Shown: piece after piece, positions 124 through 38,079 of the stretch
How positions within the stretch are numbered: the first letter of the stretch is position 1
Layout of the letters: each line of letters begins with the position of its first letter
Source of the DNA: Candidatus Woesearchaeota archaeon
GTDB taxonomy: Archaea > Nanobdellota > Nanobdellia > Woesearchaeales > UBA525
Assembly (NCBI GenBank): GCA_018221245.1
Contig: JAAOYH010000033.1
Coordinates: 1-40,807, forward strand
DNA: 40,807 nucleotides
Direction of reading: 5' to 3'
The notes under the pieces: model-generated
What the model was told of the DNA's origin: nothing
The model's database searches: none
What the model saw: the letters and a program-made list of their open reading frames with translations, nothing else
Position numbers and translations under genes: made by a program

Positions 124-145
124 CAGTTTTCCAGTCCGTCAGAAG

Positions 146-2202: not shown

Positions 2203-2224
2203 AGGGTTCTTCAGAAAATGTCAT

Positions 2225-2232
2225 TTTTAAAG
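2225..2232 (-). promoter_or_regulatory. TATA box of the pilin-like gene
   Basis: The minus strand reads cctttaaaaatg, centred about 26 nt upstream of the ATG at 2202. Confidence 0.45.
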
Positions 2233-2276
2233 GTTTGTCAGGGAAGATTCATAAACTAACTAAATACCCGTTCATC

Positions 2277-2347
2277 GCGCGCGATGACGAAGTGAACACC
2301 CTGGGAGCCTCAGGGCGATGACCATCGGATGTAACTGCCGAGCGCGC
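2277..2347 (+). ncRNA. Candidate k-turn RNA or degenerate C/D-box sRNA
   Basis: A GC-rich island sits in an otherwise AT-rich intergenic gap. Terminal stem gcgcgc (2277-2282) pairs with gcgcgc (2342-2347). A 3-nt bulge (gau) precedes tandem G.A/A.G pairs (G2286.A2341, A2287.G2340). The C-like box is AUGACGA (2284-2290) and the D-like box is CCGA (2338-2341). The internal AUGACCA (2318-2324) and GGGA (2303-2306) boxes leave 12- and 13-nt spacers. All boxes deviate from consensus. Confidence 0.3.
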
Positions 2348-2471
2348 ACTTTCTGTCCCATCGTGGTGACGAAATGACATATTCTACCAATAGTGAATTT
2401 CTCAGTCAAAAAAACATGAATAACGAATATAAACTCTCCTTCGAACACATTACCTGGTAACAGGGATCGGG

Positions 2472-3422
2472 ATGCAGTTAAGACAAAAGTTCTCACGAAC
2501 GCTTGCAACCTTATTGATTGCTGCGAGTGCTACACTTCCTCTGAGTGCCGCAAGCCTTGGAAAAGATTATCTCGTAAAAAACGCTATCGACGGAAAAGAT
2601 GTCTCTGTCATGATCAATCTTGACACAGGCAATATGATGGATATCACCTGTTACAATCCTGAAGAAGCAGGATGTGTCAAACATAAGATCGATAAGGATG
2701 GCACAACAAAAAAGGAGTTCATCCCTCCAAAATTCTCAAATCACGGAATAAACCTGGCAACAATCAAGATGATTGGCCTCGACCCAGAGAACAAAAGAAT
2801 GGCGATATGCCACTCTCACCCCTATATACAGGATGAAGAAACATCTCCAGAAATAGCACTTAGGAACAAGGCAGAGCGCATAAAAAAACGCGCTCCGTCA
2901 CCAAACGATATCAACTCGGCTTCACTCTTCCTCTTCAACTACCTGAGCGCCAGGGAATTAATAGGTGTAGAAGGCACTATCGAGAAATTCTGCATCATTC
3001 CTAGACAGGCTTGGGTCCCTGATTCAAAAGATAACGAAACAGTCTATGAGCCCATACAATTGACTAGAGATATTATCCAGTTCATGGCCAAAGAATACAT
3101 TGCTGGCCGGTTTAATAAACATCAAGAAGTTGTGGCACAAGGTGCTCCACAGGAACAAAACACATCTCCTAATTCAAAAGAATTCATCTCTGAAATAGCT
3201 GCGTTTAGCGAGTCAAAAGCTAAGGACTACTCTCGAACCCTGACAAGGTTCCAAGGGCAGAGCAATAATCTCATAAGAAAGGGGTTCACAGAAGATAGCA
3301 TATTCTCTAATCTGACAAAAGCAGTAGATAAACAGCTCAAGAAAGTCGAAAAACACAGACAAAAAGGGATAGAGCTGACTCCTCCGGCATATAGAATATA
3401 CACTGCCCCTAATCAACCGTAA
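2472..3422 (+). CDS. Secreted protein with a JAB/MPN (JAMM)-like metalloprotease signature
   Basis: The signal peptide is MQLRQKFSRTLATLLIAASATLPLSAAS. It has the motifs CHSHPY and APSPNDI (HxH ... SxxD), but these are separated by about 30 aa rather than the canonical 7-10. Confidence 0.35.
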   Translation: MQLRQKFSRTLATLLIAASATLPLSAASLGKDYLVKNAIDGKDVSVMINLDTGNMMDITCYNPEEAGCVKHKIDKDGTTKKEFIPPKFSNHGINLATIKMIGLDPENKRMAICHSHPYIQDEETSPEIALRNKAERIKKRAPSPNDINSASLFLFNYLSARELIGVEGTIEKFCIIPRQAWVPDSKDNETVYEPIQLTRDIIQFMAKEYIAGRFNKHQEVVAQGAPQEQNTSPNSKEFISEIAAFSESKAKDYSRTLTRFQGQSNNLIRKGFTEDSIFSNLTKAVDKQLKKVEKHRQKGIELTPPAYRIYTAPNQP

Positions 3423-4437
3423 TATCTACGCAAACTCTCCAAACCCTTGGAGCGTGCTGTCCTGCCTTGGCAAATTCGTACGAACCCATTTTCTTCCTAT
3501 TTCGTTCGAACGCATCCAGCAGCAAAGGAATTATTGAGTTGAACTCTCCTTCCTGTAAAAAAGCGTACAGGTGAATAACTGTGCCAGTCTTGCTCACAGA
3601 CAACACATCATCGAGGAACTCTATAGCTGAGCCCGGCAAAGGCATGGTGATTCTGTCGAAAGCCTCACCATTGGCCGCGAGCTTAGTGATTATCTCGTGA
3701 GCATCCCCCTCTAGGAGGCGAACATTTGTACACCTGTTCTTGGCCACGTTCTCCATTGCTAGTTCGTGAGCAGCAGGATTAATCTCTATTCCTACTATCC
3801 TATCTGCCTCCGAGTGATTGCTGAATAGAATAGGATAGGGACCAACTCCTGAGAAAAGGCACAAGATATCCTCCTCTGGCTTTATCTTCTGCAGAATCCT
3901 CCTTCTCTCCGTGGCCATCCTGATGCTATAGTACGCGTGCTCGACGTCAACCTTCAGCCTAACACCATTCTCTATCACTGTTGTTTCGCGAGTATCTTTC
4001 CCGGCGATACATGCCAATGGTTGCGTTCTATACTCTCCTTCTCTAATACCTGTCTTCTTCAGCACAGTTAAGATCTGCTTGTTCTGCGCCATAAGCGCTT
4101 CTCCTATCATTCGTTCCTTCGTAACGAGTTCAGGAGGTATCTCTAGTATGGCAATACTGCCTACGGAGTCGAACGCTGTCTTCAGGAGCACTAACTCCTC
4201 GTCAGATAGCTTACTTTTTAGCCCCTCTCTCAAAGATACCTTGAGATCTCTCTCCTCGCTCTGGAAATCTATAAACTCTATGTCGAACTCGAAAGGTGGC
4301 GAGAATTCTCTAGTCACAGGAAAAATTATGCCGTCGTCGGTCTTGACAGGCACGTATCCTTTCGCTAATAGGTCGTGCTCCAACAGATAGCCTTTTACTA
4401 TCTCGGCGTGCCTGAACGGCGCCTTTACCCCCAACAT
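3409..4437 (-). CDS. trm5: tRNA (guanine37-N1)-methyltransferase Trm5/Tyw2 family (Met_10 domain)
   Basis: 342 aa. SAM-binding block LCLFSGVGPYPILFS, IEINPAAHELAMENVAKN, and DRITMPLPGSAIEFLD (the NLP-type motif). Confidence 0.85.
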   Translation of the reverse strand: MLGVKAPFRHAEIVKGYLLEHDLLAKGYVPVKTDDGIIFPVTREFSPPFEFDIEFIDFQSEERDLKVSLREGLKSKLSDEELVLLKTAFDSVGSIAILEIPPELVTKERMIGEALMAQNKQILTVLKKTGIREGEYRTQPLACIAGKDTRETTVIENGVRLKVDVEHAYYSIRMATERRRILQKIKPEEDILCLFSGVGPYPILFSNHSEADRIVGIEINPAAHELAMENVAKNRCTNVRLLEGDAHEIITKLAANGEAFDRITMPLPGSAIEFLDDVLSVSKTGTVIHLYAFLQEGEFNSIIPLLLDAFERNRKKMGSYEFAKAGQHAPRVWRVCVDITVD

Positions 4438-18540: not shown

Positions 18541-19254
18541 CTAAGCATATCCTTTTTTTTCTATCTCTTCTGCCAACTCCTTCCCTCCGGAACGCACTAT
18601 CTTTCCCTCCTTGAACACATGGACCTTGTCCGGAATGACATACTCGAGTATCCTGTTGTAGTGTGTAATCAATAATACTCCTTGATCTTTCATCTTGTTA
18701 ATTCCGTCCGCCACTATTTTCAAAGCATCCACGTCAAGGCCCGAGTCTGTCTCATCTAGAATTGCTATCTTAGGATTAAGCATTAGCATCTGGAGTATCT
18801 CCATTCGTTTCTTCTCTCCACCAGAGAACCCTTGGTTGAGGTATCTGGTTGCAAATGAGTCATCAATCTTGAACTCGTCTAATTTTTCTCTCAATAGCTT
18901 ATGGAACTCTACGACATCGTAATCATTATCTGAAATTTCGTTGACAGCTGTTCGTAAAAAACTTTCTACCGTAACACCAGGTATCTCTACAGGATACTGG
19001 AAACTCAAGAACAGACCTTTCTTTGCTCGCTTGTCAGGCTCCATCTCTGTTATGTCTTCTCCGTCGAGAAAAATCTGTCCAGATGTAACTTCATACTTCG
19101 GATGCCCCATCAAAACGTTAGCCAGGGTTGATTTTCCTGAGCCGTTCGGGCCCATTATCGCATGCAACTCTCCTGATTCTATCACCAAATTGACTCCTTT
19201 GAGAATCTCTTTCCCATCTACGTTAGCATGCAAATCCTTAATCTCTAGTTTCAT
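18541..19254 (-). CDS. sufC: Fe-S cluster assembly ATPase SufC
   Basis: GPNGSGKST, the ABC signature FSGGEKKR and Walker B ILDETDSGLD. Its ATG overlaps the sufS::sufU stop (ATGA). Confidence 0.95.
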   Translation of the reverse strand: MKLEIKDLHANVDGKEILKGVNLVIESGELHAIMGPNGSGKSTLANVLMGHPKYEVTSGQIFLDGEDITEMEPDKRAKKGLFLSFQYPVEIPGVTVESFLRTAVNEISDNDYDVVEFHKLLREKLDEFKIDDSFATRYLNQGFSGGEKKRMEILQMLMLNPKIAILDETDSGLDVDALKIVADGINKMKDQGVLLITHYNRILEYVIPDKVHVFKEGKIVRSGGKELAEEIEKKGYA

Positions 19255-20843
19255 CTTAAGGCCTCCTGTACTGTCCTCAGTCCTAGAAGCGCGCACTTCA
19301 TCCTGACTGGGCCGATAGGTATTCCGAGCAGGGATGTAACATATTCTCTGCCCTTTTCACCTGACAGAGTTAGTATCTCATCAGTCTTCTTTCCCTGCAG
19401 CTTCTTGGTGAGCATACTCATCGCTGCCTGGCTTATCGCGCAGCCCTTTCCTTGGAACGCTATGTCCTTGATCTTTCCTTCGTCGACGATAACTGATACT
19501 TCTAACTCATCTCCACAGAACGGATTTCTCTCCATCTTTGTCGCTGTTGGTTCTGGGATAATTCGTTTATTCCTTGGCTTTCGCGCGTGCTCCCTTATGT
19601 TTTCAGCGTGGAGTATTTGTTCTTCTGAAAGGTTTCCCTCTCCCACCTGATCAGGATTGAAAACACCACCAGTCTTTACGTAAATCTCCAGAGCTTCTAT
19701 TAGTCTATCCAAATCTTCTTTCTCTGTATAGATTCCTATGCTTGCTCTCGTACTGGCATCTAGACCTAGCTCCTGGCAGTGCAACGGTTCTGCACAGTGG
19801 TGTCCCGCTCTGATGGCTATGTCCTGCTTGTCTAGGAACTCTGCTATGTCGTGAGGGTGTGCGTCCATTGTGAACGTGAAGATTCCTGTTCTTTCTTTTG
19901 GACCTAGAAGTGTCACTCCTTCCAGTTTTTCGAATTGACCAAGAAGGCGCTTGATCAGTTTATTTTCGTGTTCCTGCATCTTTTCATATCCTATTTCTAG
20001 AATGAACTCAGCTGCACTTCCGAGTCCTATAGCTCCTGCAATGTTTGGAGTTCCTGGCTCAAATTTATGTGGTGGTTTCGTGAACGTGGTCTGTTTTATC
20101 GTTACTTTCTCTACCTGTTCTCCTCCCCATGATGGCGGTTCCATCCTATCTAGCAAGTCCTTGTTGCCGTACAGGACGCCGATACCTGTAGGCCCGTACA
20201 TCTTGTGCCCGCTGAACGCGTACAGATCAGCTCCTAATTCTTTAACATCTACTGGAAGATGTGCTATTGCCTGCGCTCCATCCACTAATACTATAGCTCC
20301 ATGCTGATGCGCAATGCCTGCCAGCTCTTTCACGGGATTGATTGTTCCTAATACATTAGATACGTGCGTGAACGCTACAATTCTTGTATCGTTGTCTATC
20401 AGCTCTCTGGCTTTCTCCATGTCGAGCATCTGCTTGTTCTCTGTGAGTGGGATTGTTCGTAATTCCAAACCCTGTTTGTGCGCAAGCTGCTGCCAAGGTA
20501 TTAGGTTTGCGTGGTGCTCCATTGTTGTTATCACGATGTTACCTGAGTCGAATGTCGGGATTAATGATCTTGCTGCGAGGTTTATCGATGCAGTCGTTCC
20601 CGACGTGAAAATTATCTCTTCTGGCGATGCGTTGATTAGTTTTGCCACAGATTCTCTTGCGTTCTCATAACGTTCCGTGGCCTGCTCTCCAAGCCTGTGG
20701 ATAGCCCGATGCACGTTAGAGTAACCGTCTTCGTAGAACTCCAGGATTGCGTCTAATACTTTGTCGGGTTTCTGGCTGCTAGCTGCAGTGTCTAGGTAGG
20801 CCAGGTCAGGATTAGCTTTGAAGATGGGGAACAGTTCTTTCAT
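19251..20843 (-). CDS. sufS: Cysteine desulfurase SufS fused to a SufU/IscU-like domain
   Basis: The SufS part has FSGHKMYGPTGIGVLYG (PLP Lys) and RAGHHCAEPL (catalytic Cys). The C-terminal roughly 120 aa have NPFCGDE, GKGCAISQA and RMKCALL (U-type scaffold cysteines). The start MKELFPIF overlaps the sufD stop. Confidence 0.9.
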   Translation of the reverse strand: MKELFPIFKANPDLAYLDTAASSQKPDKVLDAILEFYEDGYSNVHRAIHRLGEQATERYENARESVAKLINASPEEIIFTSGTTASINLAARSLIPTFDSGNIVITTMEHHANLIPWQQLAHKQGLELRTIPLTENKQMLDMEKARELIDNDTRIVAFTHVSNVLGTINPVKELAGIAHQHGAIVLVDGAQAIAHLPVDVKELGADLYAFSGHKMYGPTGIGVLYGNKDLLDRMEPPSWGGEQVEKVTIKQTTFTKPPHKFEPGTPNIAGAIGLGSAAEFILEIGYEKMQEHENKLIKRLLGQFEKLEGVTLLGPKERTGIFTFTMDAHPHDIAEFLDKQDIAIRAGHHCAEPLHCQELGLDASTRASIGIYTEKEDLDRLIEALEIYVKTGGVFNPDQVGEGNLSEEQILHAENIREHARKPRNKRIIPEPTATKMERNPFCGDELEVSVIVDEGKIKDIAFQGKGCAISQAAMSMLTKKLQGKKTDEILTLSGEKGREYVTSLLGIPIGPVRMKCALLGLRTVQEALR

Positions 20844-21562
20844 GCGAACCTCTTGAGCAGCTCTTCTTTGACTTCCTGTGAGTGCTCTCCCATCTTGTCC
20901 AATACTTCGTCGAAGAATCCGTTGATTACCAGTTTCACTGCCACATCCTGAGGTATGCCTCTGCTTTTGAGGTAGAATAGCTTCTCTTCGTCCAATTGTC
21001 CTATCGAGACGCCGTGACTGCATCTTACGTCTTCGTTTTGTATCTCTAGATTTGGCTCTGCGTCCATCCTTGCTTCTTCTGATAGTAATAGTGTGTCTTC
21101 TTTCTGGTATGCATCGCAGTTTTTTGCGTTTGGAGCTATCCTTATTGTGCCAGAGTATTCTCCGTGGCTCTCGCAGAGCATAACTGCTCTAGTTAGCATG
21201 TTGCTTGTGGTGTGACTGGCCTTATGATCCATCTCGCTCGTCACCTTGAACTTGTCCGTGCCCGTTCCGAACAGAACACTGTGGAATTCCGCATCGGCTC
21301 CTTCGCCTTCTAAAGAACTGTGGGTGTGGCTCTCTCCAGTCCCGTGTGCTGCGTCCACCCAGAGAATTGTTGCGTCTTTTCCTAATAACGCTTTTCTAGT
21401 TGCATTTCCCGTCGTGAGACTGAAGTACTTGACTTTTGCATTAGGTTTTAGAGTTAGATTTATTGAGTACTTTCCTTCTCCTCTTTCCATTATCAGGAGC
21501 TCTTCGTTTTCCTTCACTTCTAGAGTTAGGTTTTCGCCGTTTTTTGGTTCGAGAAGTTTCAT
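20840..21562 (-). CDS. sufD: SufD-like Fe-S assembly protein (short form)
   Basis: 240 aa. C-terminal SufB/D signature EPNLEIQNEDVRCSHGVSIGQLDEEKLFYLKSRGI. Confidence 0.85.
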   Translation of the reverse strand: MKLLEPKNGENLTLEVKENEELLIMERGEGKYSINLTLKPNAKVKYFSLTTGNATRKALLGKDATILWVDAAHGTGESHTHSSLEGEGADAEFHSVLFGTGTDKFKVTSEMDHKASHTTSNMLTRAVMLCESHGEYSGTIRIAPNAKNCDAYQKEDTLLLSEEARMDAEPNLEIQNEDVRCSHGVSIGQLDEEKLFYLKSRGIPQDVAVKLVINGFFDEVLDKMGEHSQEVKEELLKRFA

Positions 21563-22974
21563 CCTATACTCCCCTCCATCTCTAGCTCTATGAGTTTGTT
21601 CAGTTCTACCGCATATTCTAAGGGTAGCTCTTTCACAATCGGTTCAATGAATCCTGAGACTATCAGTTGCTTTGCCCGCTCCTCGGATAATCCGCGAGAC
21701 ATCAGGTAGAATATCTCTTCCGTGCCTATCTTTCCGACAGTTGCCTCGTGTGCAACATCGACCTTGTTATTCAACACTTTCATCGTCGGATATGTGTTAC
21801 TGGTGCTGTTCTCTCCTACTAATAGAGCGTCGCATTCTACCGATACTTTGCTGTTAATTGCGCGAGGCATGACTTTCACCAGTCCTCTGTAAGTTGAAAT
21901 GCCTCCATCTTTGCTGATTGATTTTGCTGTGATTGTACTAGACGTGTCTGGTGCTGCGTGTATGACCTTGCTGCCAGTATCTTGGTTTTGATTCTTATCT
22001 GCAAAAGCTATTCCTAGTGAATCTGAACGTGCTCCTCTTCCTACTAATACAGAGCAAGGATAGAGCATAGTTACTCCACTACCCAAATTTCCGTTTATGA
22101 ATTCTATCAATCCGTTCTCCTGAACAATAGCTCTCTTGGTGTTCAGGTTGTATGTGTTCTTGCTCCAGTTCTCGACGGATGAGTATCTGACCCTTGCATT
22201 TTTCATCACATGTATTTCCACACACCCCGCGTGCAATGCAGAAGTTCCATATTGAGGGGCACTGCACCCTTCAACATAAGAAATTTCGCTGCCTTCGTCC
22301 GCTATGATTAGTGTATGCTCGAACTGCCCGCCTAATTCCACGTTCATTCTGAAGTATGCTTGGAGAGGTATCTTCACTTTGACATTCTTAGGTATGTAGA
22401 TGAACGTCCCTCCAGACCAAACGGCAGCGTGGAGCATGACAAACTTGTGATCGTTAATGGGAACGCATGATGTCATGAAGTATTTCTTTACTAAATCAGG
22501 ATACTTCTTCACTGCTGTGTCCATGTTGGTGAATACAACTCCTTGGTCTTCCCATTCCTTTTTCAGGTTGTGATAGACTACTTCACTATCATACTGTGCG
22601 CCAACACCTGACAATGACCTCTTCTCTGCTTCAGGGATACCTATGCGCTCGTATGTCTCTCTAATCTCATCAGGTAGATCTTCCCATTTGGTAGTCTCTT
22701 TTGCGTTGGGCTGGACGAAGAACTTTATCTTGTCCATGTCTTTGATTAAATTAGAAAGATCAGGTCCCCACTCAGGGAACCCTGTCTCTTGGTAGAGCTT
22801 CAGTCCTTTCAGACGTTTCTCTAGCATCCACTCAGGCTCTTCTTTGGATTTGCTGATATATCTGACAACATCTTCAGTGACCCCTGGAGGCGCCTCGTAG
22901 GCAGGCTTGTGCTTATCGGCGTGGTCGTACCTCTCACGGTCTATCTTGAACTCCTGCATGAGGGGAAGGCTCAT
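21559..22974 (-). CDS. sufB: Fe-S cluster assembly protein SufB
   Basis: 471 aa. Signature EATVGKIGTEEIFYLMSRGLSEERAKQLIVSGF, plus full-length SufB-like layout. Confidence 0.95.
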   Translation of the reverse strand: MSLPLMQEFKIDRERYDHADKHKPAYEAPPGVTEDVVRYISKSKEEPEWMLEKRLKGLKLYQETGFPEWGPDLSNLIKDMDKIKFFVQPNAKETTKWEDLPDEIRETYERIGIPEAEKRSLSGVGAQYDSEVVYHNLKKEWEDQGVVFTNMDTAVKKYPDLVKKYFMTSCVPINDHKFVMLHAAVWSGGTFIYIPKNVKVKIPLQAYFRMNVELGGQFEHTLIIADEGSEISYVEGCSAPQYGTSALHAGCVEIHVMKNARVRYSSVENWSKNTYNLNTKRAIVQENGLIEFINGNLGSGVTMLYPCSVLVGRGARSDSLGIAFADKNQNQDTGSKVIHAAPDTSSTITAKSISKDGGISTYRGLVKVMPRAINSKVSVECDALLVGENSTSNTYPTMKVLNNKVDVAHEATVGKIGTEEIFYLMSRGLSEERAKQLIVSGFIEPIVKELPLEYAVELNKLIELEMEGSIG

Positions 22975-23327
22975 TTAAAGCAGACATCACACCCTTTGGG
23001 GATGCCATCCTCTAGCTGTTCGTGAATTTTGCAGATGAGCCTCTTGTCCTTGACTTTCGCTATGATCTTCTGAGTCTCCTTGATCATGCTCTGCGTGTCT
23101 GTTATCCTCTTCGCAGCCTCTGTTAGAGCCTCTTTGACCTCATCAGGCAGTTTGACATGCTTTCCACGCTTCTTGGAGAAATACTGGCTCACGGCAGCCT
23201 CTGTGACGCCCAAGAGCTTGGATATCTCTTTTCCTGACTTTCCCTGTGCCCTCATGGCTACCGCCAGTTCCTTCCTTATCGTCGGAAGGATGTAGAATAC
23301 TTCCACTTCCTGGGGTTGTAATAGCAT
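22971..23327 (-). CDS. Small HTH regulator with a C-terminal Cys triad, first gene of the suf operon
   Basis: The HTH is sigma-70 region-4-like (GKSGKEISKLLGVTEAAVSQYFSKKRG). The C-terminus is LICKIHEQLEDGIPKGCDVCFK. Its stop overlaps the sufB start. Confidence 0.6.
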   Translation of the reverse strand: MLLQPQEVEVFYILPTIRKELAVAMRAQGKSGKEISKLLGVTEAAVSQYFSKKRGKHVKLPDEVKEALTEAAKRITDTQSMIKETQKIIAKVKDKRLICKIHEQLEDGIPKGCDVCFK

Positions 23328-23404: not shown

Positions 23405-24376
23405 TTACTCGCTTGGTACGCTCTGTACAATCAGCGGCTGCTCAATGAACTGTCCGTACCTATATGTGGTCTGGACGGTCATCACGTCAGTATACACCCT
23501 AGTCGAGGTGCTACTACCCGTAATGGTACAGGTGACTGTCTGAGGGCTTCCTGCATACAGAGTTATTACTCCACGGTTGGAGTTGCCTAGCCTTCCACAC
23601 TGAACAATTGCGCTTGGGTCTTCCATCTTGACGTCGACCTCAATCTTGTACTTGTTCGTGTTTCTGAAGCTTGGGTCACAGTCCTCTCCTGGCTCGCGGC
23701 CGAAAAACTCTCCTGGGCCTACGTGCTGGAGCTGGAAGTTTGCCTGTATCTTGCCCGAGTTGAGCGGGTTCTGGTTCACAGATGTGATGTGGATAGGTCC
23801 TCCAGAGTTGTGGACGAACTCTCTTGCGCCCGTAAGGGTACAGATTGTGCTGTCCTGGACATTCTCAATGATATCTGCCTTGAAGCACAGTTGAGTAGTT
23901 GCCCAGTTCTGGTAGTCGTAACAAGTCGTTCCTCTCAGGGTGAAGATGTCGCTACCACGGAGCTTGCCCTGGTAGTTCAGCCCATCAAAGATGAAGCTAG
24001 TGACGAGACCGCCGATGATAGTCCCGTCAAAGTTCTTCTGGGAACCCAAGAGGGACTCTTGGAGTGTCGCGTGCATCGCCGAATCTGAAGTGCCGAATGT
24101 AGACGGGTTGATACCCTCTATCTTGGCAGTCATATACGGGTTGTCTGTTCCAGGTCCAACATCTGCTTCTCCAACGTTTTCAGCTACGATGTTAAGCCCG
24201 AATGGGAAATTTCCACCGTCGTAGACTGCTGGAGGCGGCATGCCTTCCTGCAAGTACAGGTTAAGCGCGATGTTTCCGCCAATGAACGGACTCACGCGCG
24301 GGTCCCTAGATTGGGGAGCACAGCTCGCCAATAGAAGGAGTGCGATGATCATGGGAATGATGTAGTTCGGCTTCAT
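23405..24376 (-). CDS. Envelope-cluster protein E: lipobox-type secreted protein, paralog-family member
   Basis: MKPNYIIPMIIALLLLAS|C (LASC lipobox). Family motifs: IVAENVGEADV, TTCYDYQNWATTQLC, SGGPIHITSV and TTYRYGQFIEQPLIVQSV. The ATG at 24376 sits behind the SD gggtga; the ORF opens with GTG at 24385. Confidence 0.7.
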   Translation of the reverse strand: MKPNYIIPMIIALLLLASCAPQSRDPRVSPFIGGNIALNLYLQEGMPPPAVYDGGNFPFGLNIVAENVGEADVGPGTDNPYMTAKIEGINPSTFGTSDSAMHATLQESLLGSQKNFDGTIIGGLVTSFIFDGLNYQGKLRGSDIFTLRGTTCYDYQNWATTQLCFKADIIENVQDSTICTLTGAREFVHNSGGPIHITSVNQNPLNSGKIQANFQLQHVGPGEFFGREPGEDCDPSFRNTNKYKIEVDVKMEDPSAIVQCGRLGNSNRGVITLYAGSPQTVTCTITGSSTSTRVYTDVMTVQTTYRYGQFIEQPLIVQSVPSE

Positions 24377-24418
24377 GTCTTTCACCCTTGTGTTTCCTCA
24401 TAAAAAGCTTTTCGGTTT

Positions 24419-25753
24419 TTAAACTACGCGTTTGATTGTGACTTGGCGCATCTGCACCTCACTATATCCGTACCAAAGTTCCACCACTAGAGGTGACTGG
24501 TAGGCTGATTTTATTGAAGTGAATTGTATAGGATACGTGCAAGTGGTGCTTCCTGCCTGTGTGTTCGGGTCCAGCCTTATAGGGTTCGGATAGCAAGATA
24601 TACCTTCTCTTCCTCCACGACCTATGAGGCCTATGCTTCCTACACGAACATCACCGACGTAAACTGTGTTCTTGTGCTCCAACGTGACGCGGCCAGGATA
24701 GTACGGGCTGCATCTCTCTAGTTGCCCTGGATCCCACACTGTTCCTCTGCCTATGTTCTTGACATTAATTCTGAATATGATTTTTCTCGGGGAATTCTCT
24801 TGTTCTATGCTTGTTATTCCAACAGGAGCTCCATTTCCGCCATTCCAGGTCCTGCTCCTTGGATAGCATACCTTCCTGACGTCATCGAAAGGCGCAGGAT
24901 CTATGCATACTACTGGATCGGCGTAGGTCGTGTAGAGATAGCAGCTAGTCATCATGAACGTCTGCTGTGTCTGGTCTAACCCTATAGGCCAGTCCACTAT
25001 GTGCCCGTTATAGACTAGGAAATCCGATTCTCCTCCTGGGAACTCGTACGTATCTCCTGCCAAGAGGAACTCTATCCCTCCGTTTATGTTGAAGTTGATG
25101 CCTGATAGGATTTGGATTAATAGTATTCCGTTCTGGTACCACTCCACATTCGCATATAGGTCTCCAACGTTTATCCAGAAGAAGTTCTCCCCATATGATG
25201 AGTCATAACCAACGCTGAAATCCACGTTGTCTGATGGCCACCAGTTTTTGCTAAAGCGGTCGCCTATGCCCCGGATGAGGTCTGCGATGCTGTCGATCCT
25301 TATGCTCGTTCTGTCGCCCGCTATGACTTCTGTGCCGTCGCACCTGACGATCACACCGTACTCTCCAAACCCTATATTGCCCAAACCTATACCGCAAGCA
25401 CCCACGCCCCCATCCCTGATAGGGATTTCGTCGAACATTATCATGTTTGGATCGTAACCAGAGATGTAAATACCTCCTCGGCTATAGCTCGCTCCTTTAT
25501 TCCATAGCTCAACACCCAATGTGAAGTCGTTAGCAGATGTATCTTGTGCTCCATAATAGTAAAGTCTCGTCGGGAAGCTTACGTATCTGGCCTGAATGCC
25601 ATCGCTACCCTTATAGTATTTCGCGTACTCGTTAATTCTGCTGTTATTGTTTCTTCCACCCCACCAAGTACAACCCGAGAGCATGAGCACACAGAGCAAG
25701 AGTGCCACGACCATCGTTCTCGTCTTCACCACGTCGATATCTCTCCTTGTCAT
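24419..25753 (-). CDS. Envelope-cluster protein D: lipobox-type secreted protein, paralog-family member
   Basis: MTRRDIDVVKTRTMVVALLLCVLMLSG|C. Family motifs: GVELWNKGASY, MTSCYLYTTYADPVVC, GGNGAPVGITSIEQ, RINVKNIGRG and ELWYGYSEVQMRQVTIKRV. The ORF opens with TTG at 25786. Confidence 0.7.
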   Translation of the reverse strand: MTRRDIDVVKTRTMVVALLLCVLMLSGCTWWGGRNNNSRINEYAKYYKGSDGIQARYVSFPTRLYYYGAQDTSANDFTLGVELWNKGASYSRGGIYISGYDPNMIMFDEIPIRDGGVGACGIGLGNIGFGEYGVIVRCDGTEVIAGDRTSIRIDSIADLIRGIGDRFSKNWWPSDNVDFSVGYDSSYGENFFWINVGDLYANVEWYQNGILLIQILSGINFNINGGIEFLLAGDTYEFPGGESDFLVYNGHIVDWPIGLDQTQQTFMMTSCYLYTTYADPVVCIDPAPFDDVRKVCYPRSRTWNGGNGAPVGITSIEQENSPRKIIFRINVKNIGRGTVWDPGQLERCSPYYPGRVTLEHKNTVYVGDVRVGSIGLIGRGGREGISCYPNPIRLDPNTQAGSTTCTYPIQFTSIKSAYQSPLVVELWYGYSEVQMRQVTIKRVV

Positions 25754-25767
25754 GTTTTTAAATGTTG

Positions 25768-27486
25768 CTAGACCCACTGCTCCCAAGGCTTATTATTCAT
25801 GTGGGATCTGATAGTATCATAGTATTGTTGAGTCTTTACAGGATCGTTTCCGTTGTATCTCTTGATAGCTGTTGGCCAATCACCATACTGACCGTATAGT
25901 CTCTTAAGATACCTTGCACCATAATCAACGTTGTAGGAAGCTTCCTGTTCTCCTTTCGTGATATTATATGAAGGATGGTAATCTTCGTGAATCTGCAGTA
26001 TACCATGCGCCTTGCCCCCATCATTAGAACCTGAGGGCCAATTGTCCCAAGTACTCTCTTGGTATGCAATCGCCTTGAGTACGTCTTTAGGAAGGCTATA
26101 TCTCTTCTCCAAGATTTCAAGAAGTGAATTGATTTGTTGCTTGCTTGGGTCAGGCCCAACATTCGGAACCCTGGTCCCATCAGGCGTCATGATTGAGAAC
26201 AGCTCACCCTCAGATACTACAATCCGTTCGTCAGTACAACACTCCAGTGCATCAGGACAGTATCCTCCTGCAAAGCACCTGTTTGAGCCCTTAAGCTGTA
26301 CGCACCTGTCGAATGTGCAGGCACAGCTGAAATCGCTATTGATACCTCTAAGTTCAGAGGGAGCCTCATCAGGATGCTCAGCATAATACCTGCACTCTGT
26401 GTAAGCATATCCTTGATCGTCTTTTACAATATCATCTCCTCTGTACATGTAACCAGTATATTGTCCATCTGCGTAGACATTTAACTCAGGAATCACAGGC
26501 CTCTGGGTTCCTGGAACTCTGACTATCTCTAAATCCGCGGTTGCAGTAGTAGTATAGATGTATGACAAGTTCACTACAAGCGCCGTGACGAAGTTCTGTT
26601 TTCTCTGGTAAATTGGGTTGGTCAATTCATTCACAGGGACTGAGCACCTGACCTCTCCAGTTCCCATGTGCAACTTTACGAACTCGCTAGGCTGGCATTC
26701 AAGAGGAGTATCAAGAAGCCATGCTTGCACTCTGACTGTGTTGATTTCATCAGGAGATATGTCCTTTAGGAAACATGCAGTAGACATCTCGAGCCCATCA
26801 TGACCTATTATTCTACCCTCACCAACATCCTTCATGTGAATCACAAAGTGTGGCCTAATGCTCTCTATACCAAGAAGAGTATCAATAACTGGGAAGGACA
26901 TAACCTCTATGTAATTTATCGCTATTGGCGCACCTTGACCGCCCGAAAAACTTATGTCAACTTGGTTACAGGCCTGCTGTCTCGCGCCATCAGAATATAT
27001 GTCTGTGTTGATGCATACCTCAGCCCCTGCGGTTGTTGTGTATCTGTAACAAAGGCTAGTTATTATCTGTGTCGTGGGGCTCTCACGGGCACCATATATG
27101 GGCTTGACTGCGAAGCTGCTCTCGATAGGTATTGAAAACAATCGCTTATCTCCTATTGGGAATGATAAACTCTTGCCAGGTATGCTCTCATGATCCTGGT
27201 CAAGCGATAGGAAATCAAAAGGATAGTTGATGTTCTCCTGTACATATAGAGGGTCGGACGCGAAGCGGAGAATCATGTCGTCGTACAGCACGTCTCTCGC
27301 GCCCTCATTTGTTATCTCCACCTTGACTGGGAAAAGCGTTGCTTCGTATACCTTTTCAGGAGGTGCGTTCTCTGCGAACTCAATGACAAGACCCTCTGTG
27401 CCCTTGTACTTGACGAAATCTAGATTTCTTGGTCCACAAGCAGTCATAAAGAGAAGCAAGACTATGATTGCAAACACGTATTTCAT
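25768..27486 (-). CDS. Envelope-cluster protein C: paralog-family domain, Cys-rich linker and C-terminal SLT lytic transglycosylase domain
   Basis: MKYVFAIIVLLLFMTA|C. Family motifs: VEITNEGARDV, SLCYRYTTTAGAEVC, GGQGAPIAINYIEV, HMKDVGEG and LSYIYTTTATADLEIVRV. The linker carries 9 Cys. The SLT motifs are AIAYQESTW (catalytic E-S), GILQI, YGARYLKRLY and AIKRYNGN. Confidence 0.8.
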   Translation of the reverse strand: MKYVFAIIVLLLFMTACGPRNLDFVKYKGTEGLVIEFAENAPPEKVYEATLFPVKVEITNEGARDVLYDDMILRFASDPLYVQENINYPFDFLSLDQDHESIPGKSLSFPIGDKRLFSIPIESSFAVKPIYGARESPTTQIITSLCYRYTTTAGAEVCINTDIYSDGARQQACNQVDISFSGGQGAPIAINYIEVMSFPVIDTLLGIESIRPHFVIHMKDVGEGRIIGHDGLEMSTACFLKDISPDEINTVRVQAWLLDTPLECQPSEFVKLHMGTGEVRCSVPVNELTNPIYQRKQNFVTALVVNLSYIYTTTATADLEIVRVPGTQRPVIPELNVYADGQYTGYMYRGDDIVKDDQGYAYTECRYYAEHPDEAPSELRGINSDFSCACTFDRCVQLKGSNRCFAGGYCPDALECCTDERIVVSEGELFSIMTPDGTRVPNVGPDPSKQQINSLLEILEKRYSLPKDVLKAIAYQESTWDNWPSGSNDGGKAHGILQIHEDYHPSYNITKGEQEASYNVDYGARYLKRLYGQYGDWPTAIKRYNGNDPVKTQQYYDTIRSHMNNKPWEQWV

Positions 27487-29328: not shown

Positions 29329-30597
29329 TCATACCAGCTCGATCCTCAGTTCAGATATGTCCAAACGGTCTATATGCGGAATCACCTGAATCGTGTTCGG
29401 CCCCGGATTCAGAATCGCAGGGTCGATGATTGCCTGGTAGTAGATATCCTGGGTGCTGAAAGACTGAACAAAGCCATCTATGATGACCTCTCCTGATTTC
29501 ACATTTCTATAATCCGCGAACCTCATCGTCAGGCGGATGAACCGTTCTCCCGCATCTACGATATCAAACATATCTCTTGGCAAATTGAAGTAGTAGACAG
29601 GATAGTCATTCTCAGTCATCTCCACGACAACCTTGATTCTGTCAACTACATACTGTCCTCCATCCGAGGCGAACAGCAGGCGGTTCTCACCTTCCCTGAG
29701 GAAGTCTTTAGGAATATCTGTAGTGAATCTTATTCCGCAATCGATGAACCCTGTGTAGAGCAGATTAGGAATTACCCTGCTCATATTGTACTCATCACGT
29801 ACCATGCGCGAGTTCATGTGTATCGTGAGTCTTCCTGAGTTCCTAGGGTCACAATCTGGGACGAACTCTAGGCGAGCCTGCTCGTATCCTGCTATCTCAC
29901 GCTCCTGGATGCTGAATGTCTGCTCACTCACAGAGCCAGAAGTGTCTATTAGGTCTCCGCTAATCAGTATGTTATGAAGGATGTACGTGTTCGGTTGCCA
30001 GAAAGCTATCCCAACATCTGTAGTCCTAAATGTAAGCTTGTTGTCCCCGTCCTGGATATAATCCAGAGGAAGAGGTATGGGCTGAGGAGTTCTCTCTCTC
30101 ACAGGCCGCTCGTAGAGAAGATTGCCGTTCAGGTAGACTGCTAGAGCACCGTACCCTGACTGGTCTACGTTGAAGCTCAGTAAGTAGTTACGCCCCGCCG
30201 CTTTGTTAGCACGAAAGGATATGTCCAGGTCTCTCCTGGCGAATACGCCATTCTTCACGATTGCCGTGTCTATACTCTGTATCTCCTGGGTCATCACCCG
30301 CGTGAATATCGTCGCGCTTGGAATCGAATGTTCCATCACAGGGGATTTGAGAAGCCTCAAGGAGCCCGGTGTCTCGGTCATGATGAGCACAGATCCATAG
30401 TTGACTGAGTTATACCCTCCCGTGTATCCTGAGTTCCAATTGTTGAACCCTCCTGATCCATCCTCACCGAAAAGCAGTGCGTTTCTATCCTCTGGAGACA
30501 GGAAAAGAAGGTATAGGATAATGAGTCCCGCGATGGTCGCGACGAGAACCGCTGCGCCGGATGCATTTTGTGCTCGACGAGAGAGCTGCCTAGTCAT
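29329..30597 (-). CDS. Envelope-cluster protein A: N-terminally anchored protein with three tandem beta-sandwich (lectin-like) repeats
   Basis: MTRQLSRRA|QNASGAAVLVATIAGLIILYLLFL is a signal anchor and possibly a class III signal. Three roughly 100-aa repeats each end in GxNxL/IxF/V plus a hydrophobic strand: DGDNKLTFRTT..YILHNILISG; EGENRLLFASDGGQYVVDRIKVVV; PGPNTIQVIPHIDRLDISELRIELV. Confidence 0.65.
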   Translation of the reverse strand: MTRQLSRRAQNASGAAVLVATIAGLIILYLLFLSPEDRNALLFGEDGSGGFNNWNSGYTGGYNSVNYGSVLIMTETPGSLRLLKSPVMEHSIPSATIFTRVMTQEIQSIDTAIVKNGVFARRDLDISFRANKAAGRNYLLSFNVDQSGYGALAVYLNGNLLYERPVRERTPQPIPLPLDYIQDGDNKLTFRTTDVGIAFWQPNTYILHNILISGDLIDTSGSVSEQTFSIQEREIAGYEQARLEFVPDCDPRNSGRLTIHMNSRMVRDEYNMSRVIPNLLYTGFIDCGIRFTTDIPKDFLREGENRLLFASDGGQYVVDRIKVVVEMTENDYPVYYFNLPRDMFDIVDAGERFIRLTMRFADYRNVKSGEVIIDGFVQSFSTQDIYYQAIIDPAILNPGPNTIQVIPHIDRLDISELRIELV

Positions 30598-30653: not shown

Positions 30654-31691
30654 ATGAAGATTCTGCAAAGGGATTGGAAGCAGGGTCGCGTCAAGCTGAT
30701 GCCCGAGACCGGTGACGATCTCTGGTACCTCCACACCCTTATTGACGATAAGGATAGGGTAGAGGGTCAGAGCGAGTACAAGTTCAAGCTCGGTTCGGCA
30801 GACAGCAAGGTACGCGTCGTGAAGAAGCGCGTCTGGGTAGCCATCCAGGTCGCACGTAACGAGTTGGAAGGCTCTTCTCTTAGGATATCCGGCGACGTAG
30901 TGGACGGCTCAGAGGATGTTCCTAGAGGAAGCCATCACGGCCTCGATATCTCTGTAGGTACCGAAATCACACTCGTAAAGGACAGATGGCTGGATTTCCA
31001 CAAGGAGAAGCTTGACGAAGCTGTGAAGAGCGCAAGGCTGAAGACCCTTCTCGTGCTTTTCGACAGGGAGCGCGCATTATTCTTCCTATTGACACCTAGC
31101 GGACACAAGAAGCTCCTGGACATCAAGGGAGACATCCCCAAAAAAGGCCTTGACGAGAAGAAGCAGCACACGTTCTACAATGATATAGTACAGCACCTGG
31201 AATCGCTGGATGCACGCCATAAGAGCAGCCGAATCGTTGCAGCGAGCCCGAGCTTCTGGAACGAGTACCTGAAGAAAGAGCTCAAGGGAGATATATCCAA
31301 GAAAGTCATTTTCACATCCGTGAGCGGAGCAGAAGAGGCAGCCATTCCTGAACTTCTCAAGAGACCTGAGCTCCAGAAGGCTCTAGACGGCGAGCGCTCA
31401 GCCAGGGAAGCCATAATGGTAGAAGAGCTCATGGAAGCGCTCGGCAAGGACAAGCTAATCTATGGGCATGACGATCTCAAGAAAGCCATCTCTGAAGGCA
31501 ACATAACATCACTCACAGTCACAGAGCATGAGATTTCCAAGAGGCGTGACTCGGGAAATTTCGAGGAGCTGGAAGAGCTGATGAAAGCTGCTTCGGATGT
31601 GGGCGCGTCTGTCCATCTTCTGAGCACTGAGCACGCCATGTCTAAGATAGACGGGTTAGGAGGCGCCGTCGGCGTAAAGCGATGGCAATAG
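30654..31691 (+). CDS. pelA: Pelota (Dom34) ribosome-rescue / no-go decay factor
   Basis: 345 aa. The N-terminus is MKILQRDWKQGRVKLMPETGDDLWYLHTLI, and the central and C-terminal domains are eRF1-like. Confidence 0.9.
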   Translation: MKILQRDWKQGRVKLMPETGDDLWYLHTLIDDKDRVEGQSEYKFKLGSADSKVRVVKKRVWVAIQVARNELEGSSLRISGDVVDGSEDVPRGSHHGLDISVGTEITLVKDRWLDFHKEKLDEAVKSARLKTLLVLFDRERALFFLLTPSGHKKLLDIKGDIPKKGLDEKKQHTFYNDIVQHLESLDARHKSSRIVAASPSFWNEYLKKELKGDISKKVIFTSVSGAEEAAIPELLKRPELQKALDGERSAREAIMVEELMEALGKDKLIYGHDDLKKAISEGNITSLTVTEHEISKRRDSGNFEELEELMKAASDVGASVHLLSTEHAMSKIDGLGGAVGVKRWQ

Positions 31692-32530
31692 AGGATCTCG
31701 TCAAGCTTGTGAAGTCCAAAAAGGAGCTTGAGAATCTGGATGACCAGTACGTGCAGGAAAAGTTAGAGAGATATTTCGAAGCACATCCTAAGATCCTGGA
31801 GAAACTGGCAGCCAGCAAGACTATTGAGCAATTCACGCGAAGCAAAGTGTACAAAGAGATGCTGAAACATCTCAGAAAATCTCTAAGGACCGTCTACGGG
31901 GTATTCCAGAAAGGCGACAGATACGGGCTCCTGAATATGATTGCTAAAGAATCTGACCTTGATAGGCAAAAAATGCTGGTTGGGGAACTCTTGCAGACTC
32001 ACACCAGCACAAAAGAACGCCTCGCGGACTACTACATAATCTACAAAGAGCTATCTGAAAGATTGCCCGCCCCTAACATAGTAATAGATCTTGGCTGTGG
32101 ACTCAATCCACTCAGTCATCAGTACATGGAACGTCATGGCTGGTCTCCCAAATGGATAGCAACAGATATCAGCACAGCCGACATGGAGTTCTTGCAGACA
32201 TGTTTCGACACACTTGACATTCCTGGAAAGACTCTGAGACTTGACCTTACAAAGGACTACGAGAAAATAAAAAATCTCAAAGGCGACGTCACGTTCCTGT
32301 TCAAACTATTGGATTCTTTAGAAGAAGTAGAAAGACACATCAGCTACAAGATATTCGACAACATCACTACGCCTTACATCGTAACTAGCTTTCCAACCAG
32401 GTCTCTAGGGGGTAAAAAAACAATAGCAAAAGCATCCAGGACTTGGTTTGAGCGATTATTGAAGCGTAAAAATCTGAAGTGGGAAACCTTCAACACAGAG
32501 AATGAGCTGTTCTATGTGATTAAAACTTGA
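31682..32530 (+). CDS. FmrO/Rmt/ArmA-family 16S rRNA (guanine1405-N7)-methyltransferase homolog
   Basis: The blocks HTSTKERL, VIDLGCGLNPL, FLFKLLDSLEEVER, TSFPTRSLGGKK and ELFYVIK match the conserved blocks of RmtB/ArmA as I remember them. The gene overlaps the pelota stop by 10 nt. Confidence 0.7.
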   Translation: MAIEDLVKLVKSKKELENLDDQYVQEKLERYFEAHPKILEKLAASKTIEQFTRSKVYKEMLKHLRKSLRTVYGVFQKGDRYGLLNMIAKESDLDRQKMLVGELLQTHTSTKERLADYYIIYKELSERLPAPNIVIDLGCGLNPLSHQYMERHGWSPKWIATDISTADMEFLQTCFDTLDIPGKTLRLDLTKDYEKIKNLKGDVTFLFKLLDSLEEVERHISYKIFDNITTPYIVTSFPTRSLGGKKTIAKASRTWFERLLKRKNLKWETFNTENELFYVIKT

Positions 32531-36906: not shown

Positions 36907-38079
36907 ATGACCTTCAATCTGTTCGATTTGCACTCGAAAACTGACGTCCCAAGAAGCTGGATTTGGGTAGAAATAAGAAGTGAAATACTTAGAAAAAAAT
37001 ACCTGAAAGCTCTTGAGAAATCAACCCAAAAAGTGCTCGCTACAGAAATTGCTAAAAATCTTTTCTGTGGTTTGAGCACCATTGAAAAGCATCTCATCAG
37101 ACTGAAATCAGAATGTACATCCATTCCTCTGCCTGTTCTCATCGAACTGTGCACGCTCTTAGACATTTCATCACGAACAGCTAACACCTGGATGTTGAAC
37201 CTATTCTCGAATCCCGATAAGACAGGTAAGAAAATCAAAGCAATGAAGAAATGCTCACACACATTCGCGAAAATCGTAGGCGCATTTCTTGCAGATGGAT
37301 ACATGCAAAAAGAAAGGTACACGTACAGATTAAAGTTGACAGATGGAGAAGAAACATCGGTAAAAGCATTTGAGTCATGGATTAGAGTAACATTTGGCAT
37401 CTCAGGAAGGGTCTACTACTGCAGACAGAATAACATGTGGTATTGTTGGTTCACAAGCAAAATCATAGGCAGATACTTTGAGAATATTTTCGACATAAAA
37501 CCAGGTGCCAAATCAAGTATCGTTAAGAAGCCAGAACTCATTCGTACGAGAGAACAAGAACGGGCTTTTGTTCTAGGTTTTCTGATGTTTGATGGAGGTG
37601 TAAAAACATCAGGAATGGTTGCCGTGACATCGAAAAGCAAAATGATTATAGATGATATCGAGAAGATACTGAAAAAGAACTGTATAAACGTGAAGAAAAC
37701 TTACAGTCCAGTAAAAGATGCTTTCTTGTTGGAGTCAAGGAGTGGAAGAGACAAGGAACAACTCAAAAAATGGCTGAGATACTTCGAACCAGGCACAAGA
37801 AAACATAAAGCATTACAGTTTTTCATCGATGGATCATACTTGGAGCGGGGGGAACTACAGGAAATTTTTCCCATCCACTATCGCGCACGCGTATCAATCT
37901 CATTAATACACTCCATTCTTCAAAAAAAATCCGGGACTGTGGAGGATATTGTTTCAGTATTAAAGAAAAAAGACATCTTTGTCAGTAAGAACACACTCTA
38001 CAAATACCTATATCTTCTCAACAAGGCTAAACTCGTTAATAAATCTCCTAGAGCGCCAGTCATCTATTCTATAGGGTAA
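36907..38079 (+). CDS. Free-standing double-motif LAGLIDADG homing-endonuclease-like protein flanked by HTH/wHTH domains
   Basis: The two LAGLIDADG motifs are FAKIVGAFLADGYM and RAFVLGFLMFDGGV, about 95 aa apart. There is an N-terminal HTH (VLATEIAKNLFCGLSTIEKHLIRL) and a C-terminal wHTH-like segment (TVEDIVSVLKKKDIFVSKNTLYKYLYLL). Confidence 0.75.
   Translation: MTFNLFDLHSKTDVPRSWIWVEIRSEILRKKYLKALEKSTQKVLATEIAKNLFCGLSTIEKHLIRLKSECTSIPLPVLIELCTLLDISSRTANTWMLNLFSNPDKTGKKIKAMKKCSHTFAKIVGAFLADGYMQKERYTYRLKLTDGEETSVKAFESWIRVTFGISGRVYYCRQNNMWYCWFTSKIIGRYFENIFDIKPGAKSSIVKKPELIRTREQERAFVLGFLMFDGGVKTSGMVAVTSKSKMIIDDIEKILKKNCINVKKTYSPVKDAFLLESRSGRDKEQLKKWLRYFEPGTRKHKALQFFIDGSYLERGELQEIFPIHYRARVSISLIHSILQKKSGTVEDIVSVLKKKDIFVSKNTLYKYLYLLNKAKLVNKSPRAPVIYSIG

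Follow-up and report, generated by a model that had tools for sequence, protein, structure and literature searches.

Why should an archaeon that, as far as can be told, makes neither murein nor pseudomurein carry a lytic transglycosylase domain on a probable surface lipoprotein? The question is raised by gene C on contig JAAOYH010000033.1 of a Candidatus Woesearchaeota archaeon (assembly GCA_018221245.1; Woesearchaeales, UBA525), of which the 40,807 nucleotides analysed are called the window throughout. Gene C is the third of five envelope genes, A to E, and encodes a lipoprotein-like carrier of 572 amino acids (aa) that ends in a GH23/SLT domain. The abundant Woesearchaeota and their DPANN relatives are uncultured, and murein transglycosylases are the main clue to an association of some of them with bacteria. 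Here, such enzymes are tied to a specific, near-universal five-gene surface cluster whose catalytic head has been swapped between types, namely glycosidase, muramidase, 3D and peptidase. Our reading, to which we give about an even chance, is that protein C would be a surface-tethered, contact-dependent cleaver of murein within the A-E envelope cluster.

Protein C carries a GH23/SLT domain with intact catalytic motifs

The AF2 model of full-length protein C, built from a 60-sequence alignment, reaches a mean predicted local distance difference test score (pLDDT) of 88.1 and shows, in this order, a helix (aa 2-16), an all-beta core (20-325), a Cys knot (345-420), a spacer and a helical GH23 domain (449-570). 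The features of the gene and its product are as follows.

25768..27486, minus strand: gene C, 572-aa lipoprotein-like carrier with C-terminal GH23/SLT domain (open reading frame (ORF), Pfam SLT match, AF2 model)
27436..27486, minus strand: predicted signal peptide and lipobox, aa 1-17, ending in ...F-M-T-A-C17 (model helix aa 2-16, conservation of Cys17)
26497..27435, minus strand: carrier core, aa 18-330, all-beta (pLDDT 95-98, BLASTP paralogy to D and E)
26230..26496, minus strand: linker and 8-Cys knot, aa 331-419, ending in CCTD; the cassette junction (Cys positions, conservation)
26146..26229, minus strand: flexible spacer between knot and catalytic domain, aa 420-447 (low pLDDT, variable alignment)
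25771..26145, minus strand: GH23/SLT domain, aa 448-572, with the Pfam envelope (aa 459-546) at 25849..26112 (Pfam, phmmer, conservation, model)
26056..26058, minus strand: codon of the predicted catalytic Glu477 in the E-S motif (aligned to 3mgw, 91/94 conserved)

The original prediction, made from the sequence before any database search, had placed an SLT domain at 25771-26145 on the basis of four ordered motifs, and all of them are found there in that order: AIAYQES at aa 472-478 (nt 26073..26053), GILQI at 495-499, YNVDYGARYLKRLY at 518-531 and AIKRYNGN at 540-547. The Pfam hidden Markov model PF01464 scores 37.2 bits (E value 2.4e-9) over aa 459-546, where 21.3 is the gathering cut-off, and a six-frame search of the genome independently matches SLT at 25849..26112. 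An exhaustive phmmer search with the last 140 aa of protein C over 1.84 billion cluster representatives recovered 782 relatives at E<=1e-3, 93 of them at E<=1e-10; the match is therefore not due to chance. A word-indexed homologue search with a 160-aa C-terminal piece gave no matches.

In the PDB, the domain is closest in sequence to two goose-type lysozymes, 3mgw and 4g9s (E 0.007), and in the alignment with 3mgw Glu477 falls on the catalytic Glu. Among 94 members of the subfamily, Glu477 is conserved in 91, Ser478 in 92, Gly495 in 93, Gln498 in 90, Tyr544 in 91 and Asn545 in 89; motif II reads G495-I-L-Q498 and motif III Y544-N-G546. The subfamily furthermore keeps a goose-lysozyme-like block, QES-W...DGG-x-x-G-x-MQI...H, with D489 present in 76 and H504 in 90 of the 94 members.

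With respect to the fold, the full-length model places helices at aa 449-570 with a pLDDT of 75-95, in an apparently lysozyme-like topology. A separate model of knot and domain, based on a six-sequence alignment, was poor (pLDDT 56), and the top Foldseek matches of the domain from this poor model, weak at E>=0.17 and template modelling (TM) scores of 0.25-0.38, all belong to GH23 (EtgA, MltF, Slt, phiKZ gp144, MltC, Slt70, MltE and g-type lysozymes) and were taken as corroboration. By its sequence, the domain is of the GH23/SLT type with its catalytic motifs intact, and it is predicted to be a bona fide murein glycosidase. The chemistry would be either that of a lytic transglycosylase or that of a hydrolytic, g-type-lysozyme-like muramidase, the sequence being compatible with both, and either would cut the bond between N-acetylmuramic acid (MurNAc) and N-acetylglucosamine (GlcNAc). 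Lytic transglycosylases are set apart from lysozymes by a non-hydrolytic cleavage that yields 1,6-anhydro-MurNAc; the domain combines the SLT motifs with the g-lysozyme-like D489.

The two enzyme classes can be compared with the domain point by point. With the family-1 lytic transglycosylases of GH23 (Slt70, MltE, MltF, EtgA) it shares a PF01464 score above cut-off, the E-S, G-x-x-Q and Y-N-x-G motifs and, if the model is right, the helical topology, and with the lipoprotein Mlt enzymes protein C shares a predicted extracytoplasmic, tethered location. It is, however, only 13-24% identical to the solved lytic transglycosylases, belongs to an archaeal host with, as far as can be told, no murein of its own and, unlike the family-1 enzymes, is fused to an archaeal beta-rich carrier by a Cys knot. 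With the goose-type lysozymes 3mgw and 4g9s it has in common the aligned catalytic Glu and, at the level of the subfamily, the block ES...GD-G-x-G-x-G-x-MQ(I/V)-x-x-x-x-H, in which D489 aligns with their second acidic residue, whereas the position of their third acidic residue is taken by His500 in protein C.

A probably tethered carrier with a Cys knot and a flexible spacer

The helix 2-16 is followed by Cys17, the last residue of a lipobox M-T-A-C that fits the pattern [LVIM]-x-[GAS]-C. This Cys does not vary among the 11 closest homologues, and its conservation in an alignment of 60 family members is at least 90%. Protein C is thus probably lipid-anchored at the cell surface, and the conservation of the lipobox Cys suggests tethering rather than release. 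The core behind it holds six conserved Cys (146, 158, 173, 238, 264, 281) and an SGGQGAPIA motif, and is paralogous by BLASTP to proteins D (E 1.5e-8) and E (E 4.6e-5). Foldseek against the PDB returned for this core only generic matches to immunoglobulin-like and adhesin beta-sandwiches (integrin legs, CNA, AgI/II, a sialidase CBM and the C-terminal domain of AglB), all with TM<=0.15, and on these grounds no specific solved relative of the carrier is claimed.

The linker had been described as containing nine Cys; this count has to be corrected to eight (365, 388, 390, 395, 404, 410, 416, 417), and there is no Cys in the SLT domain. The 11 closest homologues keep every one of the eight, and most of the linker is modelled at a pLDDT of 84-96. 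The knot would be rich in disulfides. In the spacer that follows, the pLDDT falls below 50 at aa 422-431, and length and sequence vary in the alignment of homologues. The Pfam scan of protein C found PF01464 alone and no LysM, SH3, PG_binding or other wall-binding domain; scans against NCBIfam, PDB sequences and Rfam/tRNA models added nothing further.

Catalytic heads are exchanged at one junction

The full-length homologues of protein C have their first ~420 aa in common at 39-58% identity and diverge behind the CC(T/A)(D/E) knot. Behind this junction, an SLT cassette is found in P0002-P0005, P0027, L008 and L010, a 3D domain (PF06725) in P0007, P0010 and P0167, an N-acetylmuramidase (PF11860) in P0008 and a DUF2272 domain (PF10030) in P0009 and L007, while L011 combines a different, classical SLT with DUF2272 within one 1142-aa protein, and P0006 and P0011 have no cassette behind the knot. 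DUF2272 has been grouped with the papain-like enzymes of the NlpC/P60-CHAP-amidase type and likened to the amidase Tse1 (PMC10318531); by family assignment, all four catalytic head families are murein-acting.

When the carrier part alone is placed on a maximum-likelihood tree, cassettes of different types are interleaved. Small, strongly supported clades unite carriers with SLT, 3D and no cassette (95/96), with DUF2272 and muramidase (100/100), with SLT, SLT and SLT-b plus DUF2272 (100/99), and with DUF2272 and SLT (94/91), and the branches starred in the tree force at least three changes for SLT and at least two each for 3D and DUF2272. The interleaving therefore indicates repeated domain exchange at a single junction, and it argues strongly that the selected function would be action on peptidoglycan and not the accident of one fold.

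The two-headed homologue of L011 (L011:3866-7291; Candidatus Woesearchaeota UBA10207, DUGD01000057.1) has a low-complexity insert of ~240 aa, a Cys knot (643-695), SLT (735-875) and DUF2272 (999-1124), with more Cys-rich stretches inside and after SLT. More distant carriers at the C position (L013:3989-5638, L018:3959-5593, L019:3983-6229, L014:1366-2745 and L033:1433-2644) show Cys-rich C-terminal extensions of 100-400 aa with up to 29 Cys and no Pfam match, which may be unrecognised cassettes or binding modules.

The core family of the five-gene cluster is near-universal in the order

Gene C is flanked in the window by four further genes of the cluster.

29329..30597, minus strand: gene A, 422 aa, no Pfam match; upstream of B in ~30 related loci at 22-59% identity
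27483..29276, minus strand: gene B, 597-aa membrane protein, SLT absent here (synteny)
24419..25786, minus strand: gene D, paralogous lipoprotein with lipobox LSGC and carrier core (ORF, BLASTP, synteny)
23405..24385, minus strand: gene E, bare-core paralogous lipoprotein with lipobox LASC and 7 Cys (ORF, BLASTP, synteny)

Synteny was assessed by tblastn of the window proteins A-E against 44 named related loci (L007-L050), plus L052-L056. The gene order A-B-C-D-E is kept throughout the named loci, about 40 of which have A-E in synteny, with the A and B homologues on the strand of the carrier core. The closest loci, L007-L011, encode A, D and E proteins with 54-65% identity to those of the window. 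With a profile of the carrier, members of the core family turn up in 144 of the 151 genomes sampled from the order, including 112 of the 115 of high quality, usually in three copies each.

A catalytic head also occurs at another position of the cluster. The coordinates of SLT domains and core genes were taken from listings of matches and the adjacency counts are lower bounds: by comparison of coordinates, at least 11 genomes have SLT directly upstream of, and on the same strand as, the first core gene. Five of these were inspected and have the full cluster, with a B homologue of 699-847 aa, compared with 597 aa in the window, that ends in a Pfam SLT domain (E 1e-8 to 2e-13). B is fused to SLT in eight of the 44 named loci and a cassette is confirmed on C in four, with L009, cut at the contig end, as a possible fifth. 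The cluster is thus repeatedly armed with a predicted murein glycosidase, which some lineages bear on B and this one on C.

One locus, L054, contains between its C-like and D-like core genes an extra 600-aa ORF without a Pfam match (L054:3240-5042; G062:C40). A number of the cluster-bearing loci (L007, L009, L012, L018-L020, L024, L030, L032, L033 and L045) come from third-party annotation (TPA) bins titled 'uncultured Methanosarcinales archaeon'; L007, the closest relative of the window, is among them, and the title seems to be either a placeholder or an erroneous assignment.

Source genome and the question of the substrate

The assembly comprises 0.84 Mb in 94 contigs, with a completeness of 74% and a contamination of 0.65%. 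The contig of gene C also bears archaeal housekeeping genes, namely a pelota/aRF1-type gene, TrmB, Trm5/TYW2 and archaeal-type PheRS alpha and beta, and contamination by a bacterial contig was rejected on this basis. The relatives of protein C stand in records titled Candidatus Woesearchaeota, Nanoarchaeota or Nanoarchaeia, apart from the TPA bins named above, the taxon labels being those of the record titles.

Genes for Mur ligases, penicillin-binding protein transpeptidases, SEDS proteins (FtsW/RodA) and GT51 transglycosylases were not found, which in a 74%-complete genome is a weak negative. Within this limit a substrate of the archaeon's own was rejected, and a foreign, bacterial substrate is therefore the simplest reading. 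The original prediction of a probably foreign bacterial target is in this way supported by the intact catalytic motifs and the murein-synthesis genes not found, and it gains further from the murein-acting cassettes at the same junction, from SLT on the B homologues and from a multidomain hydrolase encoded elsewhere in the genome.

This hydrolase is one of four SLT gene products of the source genome, protein C included, SLT domains as such occurring in 95 of the 151 sampled genomes of the order. Its 1336 aa combine Amidase_2 (217-385), Peptidase_M23 (468-557) and SLT (~650-790), encoded at G000:C76:12397-16533 (locus L051, ORF 127-4134); they would span three peptidoglycan-bond specificities, and the protein is probably one of the 'large LT proteins' (LT, lytic transglycosylase) of the DPANN literature. 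Another SLT gene, split across contigs C11 and C40, adjoins a gene for an archaeal replication factor C (RFC) small-subunit-like protein, its RFC identity being judged from the translation, which likewise speaks against bacterial contamination, and a second further SLT gene encodes a 465-aa lipoprotein.

BLAST shows no similarity of the SLT domain of protein C to the three others encoded in the genome, and the domain therefore represents a subfamily of its own. The closest sequences outside the carrier family, at 41-49% identity, belong to proteins of about 250 aa (~220-300 aa); the few named ones are bacterial (three from Vulcanimicrobiota/Xenobiia and two from Armatimonadota), and one relative lies on a 2.9-kb contig binned as Nitrosotenuis. 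Trees of the domain are poorly resolved, with the carrier SLTs in one or two groups and the B-position SLTs apart on long branches. A bacterial origin of the domain is likely; the carrier clade may have acquired it once, and a transfer from B to C may also have taken place. Several of the relatives (P0013, P0017, P0023, P0031, P0041, P0044 and P0050) have N-terminal halves of extreme Met/Gly/Gln-rich low complexity, with for example MMQMMQMM runs, and no obvious signal peptide, an architecture that is odd for a wall hydrolase.

Proposed cleavage of murein on contact and its alternatives

Taken as a mechanism, the signal peptide and the lipobox Cys would anchor protein C at the archaeal surface, where the all-beta core, common to D and E, would build it into a surface structure made of A-E. 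The 8-Cys knot and the flexible spacer would hold out the GH23 head, which on contact would cleave the MurNAc-beta-1,4-GlcNAc bond of bacterial peptidoglycan. Local opening of the wall of an attached bacterial host or prey cell could then serve attachment, bridging or feeding. The head is an exchangeable cassette, with SLT placed on B instead in some relatives.

Several observations weigh against this proposal. His500 occupies a position at which 65 of the 94 subfamily members have Asp or Asn, and the loop of aa 481-494 is modelled at low confidence. In most genomes the cluster is found without a recognisable hydrolase on C, the gene at this position encoding a bare 7-Cys lipoprotein of ~310-330 aa, and murein therefore need have no part in the primary role of the cluster. 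At a genome completeness of 74%, the absence of genes is weak evidence, and methanogens have been proposed by some authors as partners of Woesearchaeota.

Among the alternatives, nutrient scavenging survives best, although we regard it as unlikely. The tethered glycosidase and the other murein hydrolases would in this case digest free peptidoglycan debris or necromass, with amino sugars and peptides being taken up and living cells spared, as would suit an organism with a small genome that depends on others and whose murein hydrolases cover glycan, amide and peptide bonds; a recycling 'shunt' has moreover been proposed for DPANN archaea (PMC9723730). Genes for AnmK and glucosamine-6-P isomerase/deaminase (NagB) were, however, not found, which is again a weak negative in a genome of this completeness, and a lipid-tethered enzyme in a conserved surface cluster fits action on contact better than the digestion of bulk debris.

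Somewhat less probable still is that protein C is released, by shedding or cleavage, and diffuses as a weapon that lyses bacterial competitors, in the manner of the haloarchaeal peptidoglycan hydrolases. Archaeal peptidoglycan hydrolases with killing activity do exist (PMC12352652), and the diversity of cassettes is reminiscent of the way in which lysins and bacteriocins diversify in arms races. Speaking against release are the conserved lipobox Cys, the lack of a Pfam cell-wall-binding domain on protein C and the carrier core, which has paralogues in the neighbouring structural proteins D and E and lies in an operon-like, conserved cluster.

We consider it improbable that the GH23 fold has been re-purposed for a glycan other than murein, be it chitin, a surface glycan of the archaeon itself or pseudomurein if the partner is a methanogen. 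Action on chitin oligomers is known for some members of GH23 and some g-type lysozymes, and partnerships with methanogens have been proposed for Woesearchaeota. Pseudomurein, however, lacks MurNAc, is built with beta-1,3 links and resists lysozyme; the cassettes at the same junction include 3D, N-acetylmuramidase and DUF2272, which is classed with cell-wall and peptidoglycan amidases; and elsewhere in the genome SLT is fused to a MurNAc-L-Ala amidase and an M23 peptidase. A catalytically dead module that just binds glycan strands for adhesion, for which the substitution by His500 could be cited as well as attachment, one of the possible roles suggested by Castelle et al. (2021), is very improbable given that Glu477-Ser478, G-x-x-Q and Y-N-G are intact and conserved across the carrier clade.

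Returning to contact-dependent cleavage by protein C, a broader and more tentative possibility is that A-E form a host-contact organelle of Woesearchaeales-type DPANN archaea, in which the B or the C subunit would bear interchangeable murein-cutting heads that breach bacterial walls. If this is true, A-E would be the first defined molecular apparatus for episymbiosis or predation of an archaeon on a bacterium, and its set of cassettes would reveal which type of wall the hosts have. As candidate contact machinery, the cluster together with its cassette type could serve as a marker by which the wall chemistry of hosts is read from genomes.

Relation to published systems

The general idea of bacteria-directed murein transglycosylases in Woesearchaeota has already been published, and the first interpretation of this locus is in that respect supported, not new. 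Murein transglycosylases aimed at bacteria had been described for such archaea (Castelle 2015/2021, PMC8204110), and the DPANN lytic transglycosylase proteins of this account (fam00969, Castelle 2021) resemble protein C in lineage, in the bacterial-type catalytic domain and in the proposed bacterial target. They are, however, described as very large, with up to 3000 aa, whereas protein C is a 572-aa lipoprotein with another carrier; the 1336-aa protein fits this description better than protein C does. The accessible portion of the account of these proteins makes no mention of cassette exchange or of a link to a five-gene cluster.

'Vampiristic' Woesearchaeota with GH23 and pore-forming toxins have been proposed by Vigneron et al. 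(2022; PMC9723730). More recently, archaeal peptidoglycan hydrolases were found to kill bacteria, and Nanoarchaeota to be rich in such hydrolases (Strock et al., 2025; PMC12352652). Like protein C, these are bacterial-type enzymes of archaea aimed at bacterial walls, with Nanoarchaeota prominent among their owners; the enzymes tested were secreted haloarchaeal ones, whereas protein C is predicted to be tethered. The survey demanded a Pfam catalytic domain together with a Pfam wall-binding domain (PMC12352652). With PF01464 as the sole domain found, protein C falls outside this definition of a modular hydrolase, and as it has no wall-binding domain, the carrier family would therefore have escaped the census. 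It would represent a class of archaeal murein hydrolases that is missed by surveys demanding a canonical wall-binding domain and, if active, its cassettes would be a pool of disulfide-stabilised antibacterial lysins.

Interchangeable catalytic heads of the glycosidase, muramidase or peptidase type on a constant part for targeting or anchoring, so that closely related carriers bear different heads, are also a feature of modular phage endolysins and polymorphic toxin systems. The constant part is here, in contrast, a chromosomal envelope lipoprotein of an archaeon, and neither an immunity gene nor a phage context was seen in the window. In the literature searched, no description was found of the carrier lipoprotein, of cassette exchange behind its Cys knot or of the link of SLT to a near-universal five-gene envelope cluster.

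Other genes in the window

Directly downstream of the envelope cluster lies a suf operon (19251-23327, minus strand), which encodes an HTH protein of 118 aa, SufB, a SufD-like protein and a 590-aa SufS-NifU/SufU fusion (Aminotran_5 and NifU_N). A free-standing LAGLIDADG ORF of 390 aa (36907-38079, plus strand; PF14528, E 7e-7) is located between the genes for PheRS alpha and beta. Directly after the pelota-like gene, finally, follows a 282-aa homologue of the 16S rRNA methyltransferases of the FmrO family (31682-32530, plus strand; PF07091, E 2.4e-28), a family better known from aminoglycoside resistance.

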